From positions 1 to 34,126 of IMG/VR virus record IMGVR_UViG_3300025771_000087: a DNA stretch of 34,126 nt. The stretch is one strand, 5' to 3'. Both the position numbers and the translations under genes were made by a program. Source of the stretch: a virus. Lineage: Duplodnaviria; Caudoviricetes. Shown here piece by piece: positions 2,236 to 34,126 of this stretch. Below the pieces are notes generated by a model. It saw only the letters and a program-made list of their open reading frames with translations, did not search any database and was not told where the DNA came from. The first letter of the stretch is position 1. Each line of letters opens with the position of its first letter.

Positions 2236-3573
2236 ATGGCAGACACACACTTAGACGCTGGCCAGCAGGCTCTGTTGAAGAAGCTGAAGGGTCGGCAAGC
2301 GCACTACCAGTTGATGGAACGTTACTACGATGGTGACGCGCCGTTGCCTGAGTCAGCTGAAGGTCAATCACGTGCGTACCGTCGTTTCCAACGCAAATCG
2401 CGGTTGAACTTGGCTCAGTTGTCGGTGGCTGCTGTGCGTGAACGGATGGTCATTGGTGGTTTCCGCACTGGTGCTGAAGATGACGAGAACGGGGACCGCG
2501 AGGCTCGCCGTTTGTGGAAGGCCAACCACCTCGACTATTTGAGTTCTGACTTGCATTCGTTCTTCCTGCGGTTCGGTTCCGCCTACGCCATTGTCGGCTA
2601 CCCTGATAGTTCAGACTTCCCGGTTGTGACGATTGAAGACCCACGCCAGGTTTGTGCGTACACCGACCCGACTATGCCACACGTGGTGGTTGAAGCTATC
2701 AAGGTGTTCTCTGAGGGTGGTACAAACTATTTGTACTGCTACCGGCCCGACTTGATTCAGGTGTTCGTGAAGGACGCTGACGACAACATGTTCGACCCTG
2801 AAGGTTATATGTTGTCGATGGAGATGACCAACACCTTAGGTGAAGTGCCGGTGGTGAAGTTCACTAACGCTGATGAGCGTGGCGAGTACGAACCGTACAT
2901 CGACATCATCGACCGTGTGAACCACATGATTCTGCAACGTCTGATTATCGCCACCACGCAGGCGTTCCGTCAACGAGTGCTGAAGGGTGATTTCCCGACT
3001 CACGACGCTGACGGGAACGAGATTGACTACAACGGTATTTTTGAGTCGTCTGCCGGTTCCCTGTGGATGATTCCTGAGAACGCTGACGTTGAAGAGTTAG
3101 CTCAAGCTGAAATCACTGGTATTTTGCAGGCTGTTCGTGCTGACATTCAGGATTTCGCTGCTGTGACTCGCACGCCGATGCACTATTTCATTCCTGAGGG
3201 TGTGAACGGTTCCGCTGAGGGTGCCCAGTTAGCGCGTGAAGGTTTGGTGTTCAAAGCTGAGGACCGTATCGCCCGTGCGTCTGCTGGGTGGTCTAAGGTG
3301 ATGAGCCTCATTTTCAGGTGGATGGGCGACGATGTGCGTGCCAGTTTGCTTGACCTTGAGCCTCTGTGGAAACCAGCTGAACGGTACTCGTTGGCTGAAC
3401 GTGCCGACGCTAACGTGAAGTTCGCTGATGTGCCGTTCAGGTCTCGCATGTCGTTGATTGCTCAGTTCTCCCCTGCTGAAATCGAGGAGATGGAAGCTGA
3501 GAAGGCTAGCGAGTCGTTGATTGCTCAGGCCGTCTTCATGGGTGAGGAACAGACACCACCGCCAGGACAGTAA
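2236..3573 (+). CDS. Portal protein (SPP1 Gp6-like)
   Basis: Follows TerL; RYYDGD near N-terminus, GEVPVVKFTN, IDRVN, AFRQR motifs typical of actinophage portals; 445 aa. Confidence 0.9.
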   Translation: MADTHLDAGQQALLKKLKGRQAHYQLMERYYDGDAPLPESAEGQSRAYRRFQRKSRLNLAQLSVAAVRERMVIGGFRTGAEDDENGDREARRLWKANHLDYLSSDLHSFFLRFGSAYAIVGYPDSSDFPVVTIEDPRQVCAYTDPTMPHVVVEAIKVFSEGGTNYLYCYRPDLIQVFVKDADDNMFDPEGYMLSMEMTNTLGEVPVVKFTNADERGEYEPYIDIIDRVNHMILQRLIIATTQAFRQRVLKGDFPTHDADGNEIDYNGIFESSAGSLWMIPENADVEELAQAEITGILQAVRADIQDFAAVTRTPMHYFIPEGVNGSAEGAQLAREGLVFKAEDRIARASAGWSKVMSLIFRWMGDDVRASLLDLEPLWKPAERYSLAERADANVKFADVPFRSRMSLIAQFSPAEIEEMEAEKASESLIAQAVFMGEEQTPPPGQ

Positions 3574-3574
3574 C

Positions 3575-5008
3575 ATGACTATCCGCACGGATTTGGCTTT
3601 GGCCAGTGGGAATCTCACCACTCCGTTGATTCGGAACACCGGTAGGGTGGCTGGTGGTTTGTTTTCCACGTTAGGGTCGTGGCGTGACGATGACGTGTTG
3701 CGTTACGTGCAACAGTTGAACCCGGTGTTGGGTGGTGCTAAGAAACAGGCTACCCAGGCGACTATCGCGTTTTACCAAAACATCGCCCGTTTGACTGGTC
3801 AGCCGTTCAACCGACCCGTGATTGCTGCTTCAGATTTGGCCACTAAGACTTTACGCAACAACATCACTAGTGAGACTTTGTTTAGACGTCCGTTCGTGGA
3901 CATGCGTCGTGGTTTGGCTAGTGGTGCGCCAATGACTGATGCTATTCAGGCTGGTGCTCGTCGTGCGAACCAGTTGGCTCAAACTGAGGTACAACTGGCT
4001 AAACGCCAAGTTGGGTACCGGGTACGGCAAGCGAACCAAAACATTGTTGGTTACATCCGCACGTTGACTGGCAGTGAGAACTGTGCTTTGTGTTATGTGG
4101 CTTCAACGCAACGGTACCATAAAGGCGATTTATTGCCGATTCACCCTGGGTGTGACTGCGGTGAGATGCCGTTGTATGGGACTGATGACCCAGGGCAGAT
4201 TATTGACCAGCAACGTCTAGATGCGACACATGAGGCGGTTGAGGCCAGGTTTGGTGAGTACGACCGTTCCGCTAGGTCGATTGATTACCGTAACATCATG
4301 GTTGAGGACCATGGTGAGATGGGGCCGGTGTTGACGTGGAAGAAGCACAACACCGCTAAGCTTGCTGATTTGGGTGAGGATTTGGTGTTGCCAACACCGG
4401 ATTTGACTTTGGGTGAAGATTTGTACGCTGGGCCTGTCCAAACACCGTATACTGTGGTTGTGGAGAGACTAAACAAGTTCCAGAGAAATGCGCTCAAACG
4501 TTACACTGGCAACGGTTTCTTGCCTATGAACGAGTACTTGCGTGGTGGGCGACGCTCTGGCTCGTACGGCGAGGATTTGGTGGACGACGTCAATAAACTT
4601 GAAACTGCGTTCGAGCAGGCCAAGTTGACGCAAGACACGGTGGTTTACCGTAACGTTGGTAAGGATGCGTTTGGATTGGGAGACGTCGGCTTCAAGGACG
4701 CTCCCGACATGTTAAAAAAGTTGGAAGGTCAGACTTTTGTCGAACCGGGTTTTATGTCTACTTCTTCGCTACAGGGTAACGTCGCCACTGGTGCCCAGGT
4801 GAGGATGAAAATAAACGCGCCTGAGGGTACGCCAGCTTTGGACCTTGAAGGGATGGACGAAGCGTTCGGCACCCAACTTGCTTTTGAGGGTGAAAAAGAG
4901 ATATTGTTTGGCCCAGGTACTAGGATGCGTATTGATAAGGTTACGATTATACCGGATGAAAGGTTCTTAGTGGACATTGAACTTACCCTTTTGAAAGCAG
5001 GTGAATGA
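3575..5008 (+). CDS. MuF-like minor head protein fused to C-terminal VIP2-like ADP-ribosyltransferase
   Basis: Between portal and scaffold; CALC..IHPGCDC MuF-type motif; C-terminal RYTG..MNEYLR, VYR, STS, EKE (R-S-E ART signature); start placed at ATG 3575 just after the portal stop. Confidence 0.85.
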   Translation: MTIRTDLALASGNLTTPLIRNTGRVAGGLFSTLGSWRDDDVLRYVQQLNPVLGGAKKQATQATIAFYQNIARLTGQPFNRPVIAASDLATKTLRNNITSETLFRRPFVDMRRGLASGAPMTDAIQAGARRANQLAQTEVQLAKRQVGYRVRQANQNIVGYIRTLTGSENCALCYVASTQRYHKGDLLPIHPGCDCGEMPLYGTDDPGQIIDQQRLDATHEAVEARFGEYDRSARSIDYRNIMVEDHGEMGPVLTWKKHNTAKLADLGEDLVLPTPDLTLGEDLYAGPVQTPYTVVVERLNKFQRNALKRYTGNGFLPMNEYLRGGRRSGSYGEDLVDDVNKLETAFEQAKLTQDTVVYRNVGKDAFGLGDVGFKDAPDMLKKLEGQTFVEPGFMSTSSLQGNVATGAQVRMKINAPEGTPALDLEGMDEAFGTQLAFEGEKEILFGPGTRMRIDKVTIIPDERFLVDIELTLLKAGE

Positions 5009-18967: not shown

Positions 18968-19699
18968 ATGAAGATTCTTCTTTACGACCTTGAGACTTCG
19001 CCGATTACGGCGCACACTTGGGGTTTATGGCAACAAAACGTGTCCATCTCGCAAATAGTCGAGTCCACTGAGGTGATTTGTTTCGGTGCGAGGTGGTTGG
19101 ACGGCAAGAACGTGAAGTTCAGGTCTGTTCATCACCACGGGAAACAAGCTATGCTTGAGAAGATTCACCAGTTGATGGATGAAGCTGACGTGATGGTCGG
19201 TTGGAACAGTGCTGCGTTCGACCGTAAACACTTGAACCGTGAGTTTCTGCAAGCTGGGATGACCCCACCGTCACCTTCACGTGAGTTAGATTTGATGAAG
19301 GTGGTGAAAGCTCAGTTCAAGTTCCCGTCGAACAAACTGGACTATGTCGCGCAAACGTTGGGTGTTGGCGGTAAGGTGAACCACACTGGGTTCCAGTTGT
19401 GGCTTGACTGCATGGCTGGGAACGATAAGGCGTGGCGCTTGATGCGGAAGTATCAGGTGCAAGATGTCCAGTTGTTGGGTGAGCTTTATGAGAAGCTGAA
19501 GCCGTGGATGAAGTGGCATCCGGATAAGAACATCATCGATGGTCAGGATGACGGGTGCACGGTTTGTGGTGGTGAACTTCGTGAGAGTGGCGAGTACCAC
19601 ACGAACAGTGGGGCTTACCTGAAGTTTGTGTGCCGGTCGTGTGGGAAGTACCACCGCGCCGTGAAGCGGTCTAGGACTTCGTCGGTACGGTCTATTTAG
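18968..19699 (+). CDS. DEDD / RNase H-like exonuclease with C-terminal Zn ribbon
   Basis: YDLET (ExoI), GWNSAAFD (ExoII), YQVQDV (ExoIII); CTVC..CRSC. Confidence 0.8.
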   Translation: MKILLYDLETSPITAHTWGLWQQNVSISQIVESTEVICFGARWLDGKNVKFRSVHHHGKQAMLEKIHQLMDEADVMVGWNSAAFDRKHLNREFLQAGMTPPSPSRELDLMKVVKAQFKFPSNKLDYVAQTLGVGGKVNHTGFQLWLDCMAGNDKAWRLMRKYQVQDVQLLGELYEKLKPWMKWHPDKNIIDGQDDGCTVCGGELRESGEYHTNSGAYLKFVCRSCGKYHRAVKRSRTSSVRSI

Positions 19700-21896: not shown

Positions 21897-22782
21897 AGTC
21901 GTATCATACTCAGAGCTGGACACTTACCGGCAGTGCCCACTGAAACACCTGTGGGCTTACAAAGAGCGGTGGAAGCGACCAGTCGCTGAAGGTTCCGCAC
22001 TGGCCAAAGGTTCACTGTGGCACCTCGTCCTCGAAACCCACTATCTCACCTTGATGGACGGTGGTACCCTCGACCAGGCGATTGAATCGGTGCAGCCTCA
22101 CCTGTCCGACCAAGCGAGTGGCCTGCAAACCCCTGACCAAGAGTTAATACAGTGGATGTACGAAGGTTACATCGAACGGTACGGTGACGACAAAGAGTGG
22201 GAGATACTCGCAGTTGAGTACCCGTTCGTCATCAACTTGGCCGACCCAGACGGGAACCCGTCACCTTACGACATCAAAGGGAAGATTGACCTGGTGGTGC
22301 GTAACCGACTCAACGGTTCCATCTGGGTGGTGGACCACAAGTCAGGGTCGCAACTACCTGACACCATGGACCTGGAGATTGACGACCAGTTCGGTTTGTA
22401 CGTTTGGGCGTTGAACCAACCAGGTCACGACCACTGGCGACCCTCAGGTGCTATCCACTCAGCGACACGGACCACACGGAACCAGGCTGACCACCCAGGG
22501 TACACCGGGAAGTCGAAACCGCAGACGTTGGACCAGAGACACCGTCGCACTTACCTGAACCGGTCGCAGACTGAACTGCAGTCTATCGCGTTAGACGCGT
22601 GGGCGGTAGCTGCTAACGCCTACCCAACATCAGACGACCGACCACTCTACTCAGCACCAGACCCTAGGCAGTGTGGCTGGAAGTGCGACTACAAAGAGGT
22701 GCACCTGCTGGCACGTAAAGGCAAAGATGCACACACGACGCTCAGGGACTACGGTTTCGAGCAGGACTTCACGAGGCACTGA
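21886..22782 (+). CDS. Cas4/RecB-like PD-(D/E)XK exonuclease
   Basis: SYSELDTYRQCP, GSLWH, GKIDL, VVDHKS, CGWKCDY; start moved to ATG 21886. Confidence 0.85.
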   Translation: MENKVVSYSELDTYRQCPLKHLWAYKERWKRPVAEGSALAKGSLWHLVLETHYLTLMDGGTLDQAIESVQPHLSDQASGLQTPDQELIQWMYEGYIERYGDDKEWEILAVEYPFVINLADPDGNPSPYDIKGKIDLVVRNRLNGSIWVVDHKSGSQLPDTMDLEIDDQFGLYVWALNQPGHDHWRPSGAIHSATRTTRNQADHPGYTGKSKPQTLDQRHRRTYLNRSQTELQSIALDAWAVAANAYPTSDDRPLYSAPDPRQCGWKCDYKEVHLLARKGKDAHTTLRDYGFEQDFTRH

Positions 22783-24821
22783 TGCGACCGTCAACCTTGC
22801 TTAGGCTTTACACTGAAGGGTACGCACCCTTAGGGCCGGTCGCGCTTGACACTGAGACGTCCGGACTCCACGTGGATGACGGTGCACGAGTCGCAGTGGT
22901 GTCCATCGCATTCCAGATTGATGAAGCCTGGGAGCATATTCTGGAAAGCCACGGAAGCCCAACGGAGACACCGAATGACCCGGTTTGGGGTGTTGAGCCA
23001 TATTGCGGTTCACTCAAGGTCTCCTTGGTGTCCTTCGCGTTCCCGTTCGACCAAGGAGTCGCAGGTACCGGTAAAGTGGAAGACACAGGCCAGCAGTCGT
23101 TCTTCGACCAAGACGACAACCTCGACCGTGGTGAATGGGAAGCGCTACTCGAATGGTTGCAACTGGTCGGACCGAACGGGTTCGTCTTCCATAACGCCAA
23201 GTTCGACATGCACATGATGAGAGCCGGTGTCCGTAGGTGGCCAGGGTTGGGTATTGACCTCGCCAGGTGGTTGTACTGGGACACGCAAAACGTCTGCCAC
23301 CTCGCATGGCCAGAGACCAAAACCACCTCACTCAAGCCGACCGCTAAACGACTGTGGGGAATCAAAGAGACTGACGAGTCGGAGTTAGTGCAGACTTATT
23401 TGCGCAAAGCTAAGCTGCCAAGAGGTCGTTGGGACTTGGTGCCTTGGGACGTCATCGCACCGTACGCCCAGCAAGACGCCAGACTGACCCTCAGACTTTA
23501 CCTACACCAACTGCACCTGCTTGAGCAGGGTGAGCTGGCACCGTGGCTGGACACTGAACACCTCACACCTTACGAAGCCATCCAACGTCGGTTGGAAGTC
23601 ACGTTGATGCTGTATCGGATTGAACAACGGGGTCTGCCGTTCGACGGCCAACGGGCAGAGACAGTCGGCAAAGCCATCGACCTGAAAGTCACTGAACTGC
23701 AAGCGCAACTGCCCTTCAAACCAGCGACCCTACCAGTCGCCAAACACTACTGGTTCGGTACCGGCGACCGTAACGGGGTGAAAGGTCTCGGACTGAAACC
23801 CTACGCCTTCACCCAATCCGGTCTACCCCAAGTGAACGCCCAAGTCATCGACAAGATGGTGGCTAATAAAGTCAAAGGTGCCCAAGAGTGGCGTGACCTA
23901 CAGAAACTGCAAACCGTAGGTTCAAGGTGGTACCACGGTTGGGCTGAACTGGTCGGCACCGACGGCCGACTCAGGGCATCGTTCAGGCAAAACGGTACAG
24001 TCAGTGGTCGGTTCTCGGTCGAACGGGTTCAACTGCAAGCCATCCCCCACGACTACCGACTCACTAACGAAGTCCTCAAAGGGATACCGACACCCAGGCA
24101 ACTCATCGCCGATGGTGTGCCAGACGGTTACGAACTGTGGGAGTTAGACCTAGCTCAAGCTGAACTGAGAGTAGCTGCTTTGTACGCCGACTGCACCAGG
24201 ATGCTTGAGCTGATTAGGAATGGTGACGACCTACACGGTGACGCTGCTAAGGAGCTGTTCAGTGTGGCACCTGACGACCCTAAGTGGGGTGAGATGCGGA
24301 ACGTGGCGAAACGCGCTAACTTCTCCCTCATCTTCGGTGTTGGGCCTGACAAACTGCGCGGTGATATTGAAGCTCAAACCGGTATCGTCCTCGGTCGCGA
24401 CGAAACCAGGGACCTCGTTTATGCGTGGCACAACCTGTACCCTGAGTACCACCGTTCAATCGAGTCGCACATGCGAATCGTGGAGAAACGGCAGAAACAA
24501 CACGGGTTCGGTTGGGTCAGCTTATGGAATGGGGAACGTCGGTGGTTTACTCATGAGGAAGAAGCGCACAAAGCGTTCAACCAGAGGGTGCAACCGGCGT
24601 TGGCTCAGTTCGGAATGGATTGGGCGTTAGCCACTGAGCAACGGTTGATGAATCAAGACGGCCAAGGTATTGTGATGACTATTCACGACTCGTTGGTGTT
24701 GCTGCTGAGGGCGGATAAAGCTGAGGATACAGCTAAGGAGATACAGATGTTGGGGACGCAACTTTGGGAGCGCGTGTTCCCTGGTGTGCCAGGTGGTATC
24801 GATTGTAAGAGATGGTCCTAA
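22782..24821 (+). CDS. Family A DNA polymerase with 3'-5' exonuclease; candidate DpoZ-like
   Basis: DTET, HNAKFD, YAQQD exonuclease motifs; SGRFS, DLAQAELR (A), RNVAKRANFSLIFG (B), IHDS (C). Family is secure; Z-specificity is inferred only from linkage to purZ. Confidence 0.92.
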   Translation: MRPSTLLRLYTEGYAPLGPVALDTETSGLHVDDGARVAVVSIAFQIDEAWEHILESHGSPTETPNDPVWGVEPYCGSLKVSLVSFAFPFDQGVAGTGKVEDTGQQSFFDQDDNLDRGEWEALLEWLQLVGPNGFVFHNAKFDMHMMRAGVRRWPGLGIDLARWLYWDTQNVCHLAWPETKTTSLKPTAKRLWGIKETDESELVQTYLRKAKLPRGRWDLVPWDVIAPYAQQDARLTLRLYLHQLHLLEQGELAPWLDTEHLTPYEAIQRRLEVTLMLYRIEQRGLPFDGQRAETVGKAIDLKVTELQAQLPFKPATLPVAKHYWFGTGDRNGVKGLGLKPYAFTQSGLPQVNAQVIDKMVANKVKGAQEWRDLQKLQTVGSRWYHGWAELVGTDGRLRASFRQNGTVSGRFSVERVQLQAIPHDYRLTNEVLKGIPTPRQLIADGVPDGYELWELDLAQAELRVAALYADCTRMLELIRNGDDLHGDAAKELFSVAPDDPKWGEMRNVAKRANFSLIFGVGPDKLRGDIEAQTGIVLGRDETRDLVYAWHNLYPEYHRSIESHMRIVEKRQKQHGFGWVSLWNGERRWFTHEEEAHKAFNQRVQPALAQFGMDWALATEQRLMNQDGQGIVMTIHDSLVLLLRADKAEDTAKEIQMLGTQLWERVFPGVPGGIDCKRWS

Positions 24822-30682: not shown

Positions 30683-31822
30683 ATGTCAACAATCGATATC
30701 ATCACAGGAGCACAATACGGCTCCGAAGGTAAAGGACACGTCACAGCACAACTCGTCCACCGGTACAACCACGACGGAGAACGTACCACCAACATAAGAG
30801 TGGCCGGACCCAACGCCGGACACACCGTCATCGACGAAGGAGGCATGGCATTCCCACTGCGCACCATACCAGTCGGAGCAGCCATCAACCACGACGCCGA
30901 CCTCTACATCGCACCAGGCTCAGAAATCGACCTCGAAGTGCTACACCAAGAAATCCTCACCCTGCGGCAAGCCGGACACCCAGTGCGGAACCTATACGTC
31001 AGTGGGGAAGCCACACTGCTCACCCAGAAACACAAAGACCGCGAAACCGAAATGGACATGCACGGCACCATCGGCTCAACCGGTAAAGGCATCGGAGCAG
31101 CCAGAGCCGACCGGATAATGCGCACAGGCGAACGAATCATCGACAACTGGGAAGCACGCACCCTCATCACCGCACTCAAAGCGCAAATCCTCACCGCACC
31201 CGAACACCTGCTGTTCATGGCCAACCAACTCAACCAACACAACCGGCACATCCTCATCGAAGGCACCCAAGGTTACGGCCTAGGGTTACACGCCGGACGG
31301 TACCCACAATGCACCAGCTCCGACGCCAGAGCCATCGACTTCCTAGGGATGGCCGGAATCTCACCCTGGGCACCAGGAGTTGAACGAGTCACACCCTGGT
31401 TAGTCGCCAGGGTGTACCCAATCAGAGTCGCCGGTAACAGTGGCCCACTCGAAGGCGAAACCAGCTGGGAACAGCTAGGTCTCCCCGAAGAGAAAACCAC
31501 CGTCACCCACAAAGTGCGACGAGTCGGAGAATGGGACGCCAAACTGATGCGAGAAGCAGCAGTGGCAAACGGAATCGCAGTGCACCAATACGGCATGCCA
31601 CCAACCAACTACAACGCACCCGGACGAGTCGCCCTAACCATGGTAGACCAGAAAATCCCACAAATCCACGGACTCAGCAACCTTGACGACGCAGACGACG
31701 ACACCCAAGACCTAGTCTGGGAGTTAATCCGCGACGTCGAGAGCAACGCCGGAACCAAAGTGGGGATGTTCACCACATCAGCCGACACCTGCATCTGGAA
31801 CGAAGGACAGGTAGACTGGTGA
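30683..31822 (+). CDS. purZ: PurA-like 2-aminodeoxyadenylosuccinate synthetase (PurZ, likely PurZ0 type)
   Basis: GAQYGSEGKG (Ser14 where PurA has catalytic Asp), GPNAGHT, IGSTGKGIG, EGTQG, YPQCTS, PIRVAGNSGP, TTVTHKVRRVG, TMVD. Confidence 0.9.
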   Translation: MSTIDIITGAQYGSEGKGHVTAQLVHRYNHDGERTTNIRVAGPNAGHTVIDEGGMAFPLRTIPVGAAINHDADLYIAPGSEIDLEVLHQEILTLRQAGHPVRNLYVSGEATLLTQKHKDRETEMDMHGTIGSTGKGIGAARADRIMRTGERIIDNWEARTLITALKAQILTAPEHLLFMANQLNQHNRHILIEGTQGYGLGLHAGRYPQCTSSDARAIDFLGMAGISPWAPGVERVTPWLVARVYPIRVAGNSGPLEGETSWEQLGLPEEKTTVTHKVRRVGEWDAKLMREAAVANGIAVHQYGMPPTNYNAPGRVALTMVDQKIPQIHGLSNLDDADDDTQDLVWELIRDVESNAGTKVGMFTTSADTCIWNEGQVDW

Positions 31823-32142
31823 GCGAACTCAACGAATGGTGGGTCGAAATGGCCCGTAAAGAAATCGACGACATGACCGCCAAGATGGTCGAATACGGAG
31901 GGAACGGCAGAGCTGAAGACCTCATCCAAATCGGCCAAACCGTCGCCCTCACAGCAAAACGGAAAGTAGACGACGAAGAAGCAACCGAACTAGGCATCTA
32001 CTTCTACCTCATCGGCAAAATGGCCCGATGGACGGCAGCAGTCGTCGAAGGAGACCGACCCTCAGACGACACCCTACACGACATCAGCGTCTACACGCGG
32101 ATGGCTCAACGTGCCCGTCACAGTGGTGGCTGGCCAAACTAA
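31819..32142 (+). CDS. All-alpha MazG-like nucleotide pyrophosphatase (DUF1599/Nmad1-like)
   Basis: GTGA overlap with purZ; K..EYG, K.AR, DDTLHDISVY pattern. Confidence 0.6.
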   Translation: MSELNEWWVEMARKEIDDMTAKMVEYGGNGRAEDLIQIGQTVALTAKRKVDDEEATELGIYFYLIGKMARWTAAVVEGDRPSDDTLHDISVYTRMAQRARHSGGWPN

Positions 32143-32155
32143 AAAGGAGACCCAC

Positions 32156-33025
32156 ATGTTAATCTACCTCGCACACCCAATCGACAACCGCACCAATAAA
32201 ATGCCCGACGAACTAGACCGACGGTTAGACTACATCCGCCACAGTGTCAAAGGTTCCGGACACCACCTCTACCACCCAGGTAAAGCGTTCGTAGTTGGTA
32301 AGAAAACCACACCTGACTGGACAATCGAACACATCAACCGGACAGCTCAAAACACCGCAGACGCCCTGTTGGTGGTGTGGCCCAAAGGGTCCAAATCATG
32401 GGGAGTCCCAGCTGAAGTGGAACGGGCACGCACCCTCGGACAACCAGTCGCCATCCTAACCGACGACCACACCAGCTGGGCCATGCCAATGCCAGAAGCC
32501 GACCCACTCGTCAAAGTGTTCAGTATGGACAGTGGCAACAACCTCAAAGCCATACAGTGGCTGGAGAAGTTCCACTCACCGAAACGACGCGACCTACAAG
32601 CCGTCAAATGGACCCGGACTGCAGAGACCGGCCAATCCCCACGGAGAGCATACATGGACGACGCAGGGTTCGACCTGTACGTCTCCAAAGAAGTCACCAT
32701 CCCACCCGGCAAGTTCGTAGACGTCCACACCGACGTCGCAGTTGAACTGCCAGACGACAGTTGGGCGATGCTCACCGGCCGTTCCAGCACCCTCAGGAGC
32801 AAAGGTCTCCTCGTCAACCAAGGCATCATCGACCCAGGCTACCGAGGTGAACTGTTCATCGGATGTTGGAACATGACCACCAAAGAAATCACCGTGCACC
32901 CCGGAGACCGAATCGGCCAACTCATCATCATGTGCAACCGCACAGCTCAAGTGAGCCTGGTCGAAACAGACCACCTGTCCTACCACCCGAGAGGCATAAA
33001 AGGCTTTGGCTCAACCGGCGAGTGA
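32156..33025 (+). CDS. Fusion: NDT/DNPH1-like N-hydrolase plus trimeric dUTPase-fold domain
   Basis: AAAGGAG RBS; N-terminal IYLAHP..ADALL..SWGVPAEVERA..GQPV; C-terminal AGFDL, GRSS, GIIDPGYRGE, GDRIGQL, RG.KGFGSTG. Confidence 0.85.
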   Translation: MLIYLAHPIDNRTNKMPDELDRRLDYIRHSVKGSGHHLYHPGKAFVVGKKTTPDWTIEHINRTAQNTADALLVVWPKGSKSWGVPAEVERARTLGQPVAILTDDHTSWAMPMPEADPLVKVFSMDSGNNLKAIQWLEKFHSPKRRDLQAVKWTRTAETGQSPRRAYMDDAGFDLYVSKEVTIPPGKFVDVHTDVAVELPDDSWAMLTGRSSTLRSKGLLVNQGIIDPGYRGELFIGCWNMTTKEITVHPGDRIGQLIIMCNRTAQVSLVETDHLSYHPRGIKGFGSTGE

Positions 33026-34047: not shown

Positions 34048-34126
34048 GTGTGGCAACGGTGGCAGTGGTGGCATTGGTAATGTGGTATACAATGGAGGGA
34101 ATCTCCCCCCTGGGTGCTGCGCTACA

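Follow-up and report, generated by a model that had tools for sequence, protein, structure and literature searches.

What does a phage protein that joins an NDT-fold domain to a trimeric dUTPase-fold domain do directly downstream of a purZ0 module? We addressed this question in a window of 34,126 bases (the whole stretch of viral DNA analysed), in which the first-pass annotation had proposed a dNMP N-glycosidase fused to a dUTPase-fold pyrophosphatase. Judged by homology, the protein is very probably a two-domain DmtZ-DutZ enzyme that would drain dATP in two steps and feed the 2-aminoadenine (Z) pathway. The features on which this reading relies are:

22782..24821, + strand: family A DNA polymerase of the Wayne type, by homology DpoZ-1, from its identity to Wayne gp47
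30683..31822, + strand: purZ0, 2-amino-adenylosuccinate synthetase (Ser14, Asp322); best PDB match 7vf6
31819..32142, + strand: protein of 107 aa and four helices from a PurZ0-linked family without a name, predicted nucleotide-pool enzyme
32145..32149, + strand: AGGAG, ribosome-binding-site-like by sequence, 6 nt ahead of the ATG at 32156
32156..33025, + strand: dmtZ-dutZ fusion gene, 289 aa; 45% full-length identity to Wayne gp53 (ALY10777.1)
32156..32575, + strand: DmtZ domain, NDT superfamily (Y4, D10, P41, N61, G83, E87, W108)
32597..33022, + strand: DutZ domain, trimeric dUTPase fold, motifs 1-5

The fusion ORF runs from the ATG at 32156 to a stop at 33023-33025 and is the third of three tightly spaced genes, after purZ0 and a 107-aa ORF that overlaps the purZ0 stop by 4 bases. 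A single ORF with two domains, as first described, was borne out by the ORF coordinates, Pfam, the AF2 model (two domains, pLDDT 83), Foldseek and a profile of the N-domain. The motifs quoted for the N-domain were likewise found, with IYLAHP at aa 3, SWGVPAEVERA at aa 81 (containing Glu87) and TSWAM at aa 106. The N-domain alone gave a weak Pfam match to NDT (E 0.026, below the cut-off). However weak that match, residues 1-140 belong to the NDT superfamily: a profile of 22 relatives matched NDT, DNPH1/Rcl and MilB chains in the PDB (best E 2.8e-4), PF05014 was matched by 15 of these 22 aligned relatives, and an Atlas model of aa 1-142 matched NDT clusters at TM 0.75-0.79.

We then mapped the residues of the DmtZ from Gordonia phage Ghobes onto the fusion: Y6 corresponds to Y4, D12 to D10, P57 to P41, N77 to N61, G99 to G83, E103 to E87 and W124 to W108. 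The catalytic triad Tyr/Asn/Glu of Ghobes (Y6, N77, E103) is retained, and so are D10 (dAMP specificity), P41, G83 (phosphate pocket) and W108 (lid), which stand for Ghobes Asp12, Pro57, Gly99 and Trp124. In the accessible part of the published mutant analysis, E103A, Y6A and the D12 mutants were inactive on dAMP and N77D was impaired (PMC12884076); the residues essential there are all kept here as Y4, D10, N61 and E87. When distinct near-complete DmtZ domains were compared, the Y, D, P, N, G and E were the same in 57/57, and the Trp was present in 32 of the 57. The S-x-G-x-x-x-E segment had been likened to DNPH1-type hydrolases more than to transferases, and this comparison holds: it aligns with rat DNPH1 (4fyh), while the transferases 8pqp and 7m5h have D at the Ser position.

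The C-domain was recognized directly. Pfam dUTPase covers aa 160-288 (E 1.7e-26), PDB sequence matches start from E 2e-20, and Foldseek of the full AF2 model returned only trimeric dUTPases among the matches listed (best E 2.5e-12). All five trimeric dUTPase motifs announced in the first-pass annotation are present, starting at aa 169, 208, 223, 250 and 279, where the numbering 1-5 follows the established scheme. Identity of this domain is 53.9% to Wayne and 45.1% to Ghobes. The RSS and DPGY variants singled out earlier are both there but are not diagnostic, and as marks of altered specificity they do not tell dUTPases linked to purZ from the rest: of the 12 dUTPases from loci without purZ, 10 have RSS and 4 have DPGY, the latter being present in 5 of 59 purZ-linked ones, and Wayne itself has DAGY. 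The longer GRSS was found in 59/59 purZ-linked dUTPases and 0/12 others, a split that is partly circular because the metagenome search selected on the GRSS motif. In a dUTPase tree (66 domains used of 81 rows, 15 near-copies having been dropped, with bootstrap not fully settled) the fusion C-domain fell inside a 50-row clade with support 99/90, together with Wayne and Ghobes (L001 and L005). In this DutZ clade 43 rows are purZ-linked and the other 7 lie on contigs too short upstream to reveal purZ.

A tblastn search with the fusion matched 1135 phage records, and in 113 of these the match covered 80% or more of the query. Searching with the N-domain alone gave 113 records, of which 105 were from Arthrobacter phages, 5 from Streptomyces phages and 3 from Gordonia phages. 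The nearest cultured phages are at most 45.4% identical to the fusion. One homolog, gp53 of Arthrobacter phage Wayne (ALY10777.1), was named DmtZ-DutZ by Poubanne et al. (NAR 2026, PMC12884076). According to the parts of that paper available to us, the C-domains of the Wayne and Ghobes homologs convert dATP, dGTP and dUTP to dNMPs, with apparent kcat values for Wayne of 16.4 per s on dUTP (the fastest), 5.9 on dATP and 0.56 on dGTP, so that hydrolysis of purine dNTPs, and not of dUTP only, is seen in a published homolog. The same parts give adenine as the main product of the fused protein on dATP, and report that its N-domain releases adenine from dAMP and passes the sugar-phosphate to the Z base. 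Wayne gp53 therefore performs both reactions that the first-pass annotation had offered as alternatives, a sink from dNTP through dNMP to free base and an exchange of adenine for 2-aminoadenine (PMC12884076, accessible part). Hydrolysis by the N-domain is described there as limited to dAMP, with the Ghobes DmtZ additionally cleaving dZMP and Wayne's not, and therefore DmtZ members differ.

The protein encoded in the window is likely a further copy of this published enzyme, with no new mechanism and with its activity assigned by homology. N-domain identity is 41.6% to Wayne and 20.7% to Ghobes. Hydrolysis of dAMP only is the better guess for the fusion, over hydrolysis of dZMP as well, because its N-domain is closer to Wayne than to Ghobes by a factor of two and has Wayne's Trp82 (Wayne Trp86). 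At 45% identity to Wayne gp53, specificity could have drifted.

Following Wayne and Ghobes, the first step would be cleavage of dATP, dGTP and dUTP by the trimeric dUTPase-fold C-domain to dNMP and PPi, which would thereby remove dATP and supply dGMP, the PurZ0 substrate. In the second step Glu87 of the NDT-fold N-domain, itself held by Tyr4 and Asn61, would attack dAMP, with Asp10 reading the adenine 6-amine. The covalent deoxyribose-5-phosphate intermediate on Glu87 would be resolved by water to free adenine, from which host kinases would therefore be unable to rebuild dATP. Z base, where it is free, may accept the sugar-phosphate from the intermediate to give dZMP. The pool available to the Wayne-like polymerase would then be dZTP-rich and dATP-poor, and the fusion would stand in for the DatZ and MazZ of other Z-phages.

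The dATP sink is likelier the main role than the transfer, which depends on free Z base. A stricter version allows the protein no in vivo function besides the sink and treats transfer from A to Z as a side reaction at the covalent intermediate, free Z base being scarce in infected cells. In its favor, dZMP is already made de novo by PurZ0, and the accessible text of PMC12884076 gives about 20% transfer with 1 mM Z supplied, and its authors themselves propose salvage of Z from cleaved phage DNA. The same source, however, finds transfer exclusive to Z among five bases tested, for both homologs, and we consider the stricter version evenly poised between right and wrong. It refines the explanation by a two-step dATP drain and does not contradict it.

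Next, we considered the company that the fusion keeps. The purZ0 product matched 7vf6 (Archimedes PurZ0) at E 3e-84 versus E 3e-28 for a 6fm1-type PurZ. Its Ser14 lies at the PurA Asp13 position, and its Asp322 is aligned with 7vf6 at a position that is Asn in VP5 PurZ. The Asp at this position presumably has a role in GTP use. The polymerase is 49% identical to Wayne gp47 versus 25% to the Vibrio phage VP5 polymerase. Among PurZ0 phages, Streptomyces phage Hiyaa has its own PurB-like lyase by annotation (gp76; L004 11024-12397), for a step that is usually the host's.

The window is a siphovirus-type record extending from terminase/head genes to an HNH gene, and CheckV puts its completeness at 76%. 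The genome is nevertheless apparently complete, because the identical record L099 (7970-8401) runs from the window's end into its start, matching to base 34125, then continuing with 11 bases and then with bases 1-420; most likely it is circularly complete at ~34.1 kb despite the 76% estimate. A search for YfbR/DatZ, whose control matched in 6 of 14 genomes, found none in the 34,126-base genome, and a custom DUF5664 profile, which did match its positive control (L001), found none of that family either. The DUF5664 and DUF550 family searches of the genome also gave no match, and neither matched any control genome; the absence of DUF550/MazZ is the weaker of these results. Across the YfbR/DatZ, DUF550 and DUF5664 searches, no dATP-removing gene other than the fusion was found in the genome. 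Elsewhere on the + strand, 3521-5008 encodes a head-morphogenesis/maturation protein that ends in an ADP-ribosyltransferase-family domain (aa 325-488, PHROG E 5.8e-14), possibly a virion-delivered anti-host enzyme, and 18968-19699 encodes a stand-alone DnaQ/RNase H-fold 3'-5' exonuclease, besides the polymerase's own exonuclease domain.

A search for related loci with the single fusion protein found no relative, and an alignment of fusions was needed to retrieve loci. With it we fetched 70 viral and 27 metagenome loci, which after dropping two self-copies (L099 and L100) and 12 exact duplicates left 83 distinct loci. The DmtZ domain was present in 48 of the 83 and fused to the dUTPase in 34. 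We found purZ in 42 of the 48 DmtZ loci and in 29 of the 34 fused ones, all six misses having less than 700 bases upstream; where at least 1.5 kb was available upstream, purZ accompanied the fusion in 26/26 loci. By comparison, a purZ/purA match was found in 13 of 35 dUTPase-only loci. No datZ appeared in the 34 fused loci when as much as 6 kb of flank was searched with a single DatZ query. The co-occurrence of the fusion with purZ in the absence of datZ, raised as a possibility in the first-pass annotation, is what these loci display; dUTPase or DmtZ motifs had been the basis of selection in both locus searches, and the 34 fused loci are not independent, because 13 are closely related Arthrobacter phage records. 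Congruently, the accessible part of PMC12884076 counts dutZ in 98/98 PurZ0 genomes and dmtZ in 85/98, fused in 77, and a 2025 preprint, as far as its available portion goes, independently associates Wayne-like Z genomes with NDT and with dUTPase/NDT fusions (10.1101/2025.10.22.683976).

Other arrangements were also seen. L056, L058, L064 and L065 form a PurZ0 subgroup ordered purZ-dutZ-(gap)-dmtZ, unfused and with neither the 107-aa gene nor DUF5664. In L089 (2-1476) the order is dUTPase, 107-aa family and a distant DmtZ-like domain, and the contig ends upstream. In L085 and L086 the dUTPase, which lies outside the DutZ clade, is directly followed by a distant PurA/PurZ-like gene.

The strict purZ link and the failure to find another dATP-removing gene argue against a plain house-cleaning dUTPase whose N-domain is vestigial or inactive. 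The canonical motifs 1-5, the N-domain score below the Pfam cut-off and the preference of the Wayne enzyme for dUTP, its fastest substrate in the accessible data of PMC12884076, would suit such a protein, but the DmtZ residues whose mutation causes loss or impairment are intact here and invariant in 57/57 relatives, and we regard this explanation as very improbable. Equally hard to credit is a nucleoside (not nucleotide) purine-purine transferase converting dA to dZ like NDT-M2, an enzyme from the Z-enriched contigs of the metaGPA preprint that prefers dA as donor (10.1101/2025.10.22.683976, available portion): the two top PDB profile matches of the N-domain carry nucleoside transferase annotation, but Ser81-Trp82-Gly83 fits the DNPH1 monophosphate pocket and the Ghobes model, not the transferase Asp, and the closest assayed homolog works on dAMP (PMC12884076, accessible part).

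The 107-aa gene that separates purZ0 from the fusion occupies the slot of DUF5664-1 in Wayne. Its family matched 31 phage records, none from Arthrobacter phages; the counts in Microbacterium (18), Gordonia (6) and Streptomyces (5) phages equal those of the purZ search. Members occur in Ghobes, Archimedes, Hiyaa and Microbacterium Z-phages, and the gene adjoins purZ0 in 7/7 such phage records inspected. The viral loci found with the 107-aa protein carried purZ in 18 of 20 cases, both misses being truncated loci, and a dUTPase in 20/20. Among 55 loci with a purZ/purA match, 31 had the 107-aa gene only, 15 DUF5664 only, none both and 9 neither, two of these nine being distant PurA-like matches. 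At 50% identity the family falls into 944 clusters. Of 145 newly listed representatives, 3 exist as a C-terminal fusion to PurZ0.

The model of the 107-aa protein has four helices (pLDDT 92.9). VIA comparison with 48,161 chains placed S-2L MazZ (7ody) on top, with Z 6.5 and rmsd 2.8 over 64 aligned residues, which is under the trust level for helical models; the runners-up were MazG/HisE entries at Z 5.3-6.2, with unrelated helical proteins within 1 Z. Foldseek against the PDB gave nothing at E<=1e-3, and BFVD returned only members of the family itself at that threshold, its weak rows being DUF6378 and 'nucleotide modification associated domain' (E 0.15-0.6, TM about 0.5-0.6). The family bears weak resemblances to DUF6378, DUF1599 and nucleotide-modification domains, with no DUF1599 match when this was searched. 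No Pfam family scored over the cut-off in 42 members, no PHROG or PDB sequence matched, and the family profile matched neither DUF5664-1 nor the VP5 gene between purZ and datZ. The metal ligands of MazZ are four acids, E35, E38, E50 and D53, as given in the accessible part of PMC8342488. In the 107-aa protein, the last helix bears the conserved acids D84 and D88, and the helix before it bears E57 with the invariant K67/R70; judged from the positions of residues along the helices, a MazZ-type ExxE pair is not evident. We found no description of the family in the literature searched, and Pezo 2021, Zhou 2021, Tong 2023, the figures of PMC12884076 and the supplement of the preprint may mention it.

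These observations make the 107-aa family a candidate for the missing enzyme of the PurZ0 module. That the protein is a dNTP pyrophosphatase has roughly an even chance. The fuller proposal, which we would neither favor nor discount, is a fourth component of the PurZ0 module: a divergent all-alpha dGTP/dATP pyrophosphatase (MazG/MazZ-, DUF6378/Nmad1-like) feeding dGMP to PurZ0 and non-orthologously replaced by DUF5664-1 in Arthrobacter phages.

The pathway has already been characterized biochemically and the fusion alone therefore matters little, as one more uncultured lineage in it, though usable as a divergent copy for probing the preference for dAMP versus dZMP and for dATP versus dUTP. The 107-aa family is the more important, being nearly universal beside purZ0 outside Arthrobacter phages; its activity, once defined, would complete the PurZ0 module and could aid the building of Z-DNA in cells.

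Finally, we compared the locus with known systems. The DatZ and MazZ of S-2L/phiVC8-like Z-phages are alike in removing dATP and supplying dGMP (PMC8342488, accessible part), but have unrelated folds (HD and all-alpha), and neither was detected in this genome. The dNMP/NMP N-hydrolases DNPH1/Rcl and MilB share the NDT fold, the Tyr/Glu catalysis and the S-x-G-x-x-x-E phosphate pocket; unlike them, the protein studied here has Asn61 for the usual Asp, a transferase-typical Pro and the dUTPase fusion, and DmtZ homologs also move the sugar-phosphate to Z (PMC12884076, in its accessible part). Ghobes has the catalytic residues and its 107-aa family member (gp51) directly after purZ0, but a split DmtZ (AOE44404.1) and DutZ (AOE44406.1), two genes against the single fused one in the window; identity between the N-domains is only 20.7%, and its DmtZ, by the accessible account, also cleaves dZMP (PMC12884076). 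Wayne differs in length (306 aa against 289 aa here) and in carrying DUF5664-1 and gp52 between purZ0 and the fusion where this separate uncultured lineage has the unnamed 107-aa family. The Wayne DmtZ-DutZ is alike in domain order, 45% full-length identity, DmtZ active-site residues including Trp82 (Wayne Trp86) and dUTPase motifs, and its context is alike too: a fusion downstream of purZ0, without datZ and with a polymerase of the Wayne type.
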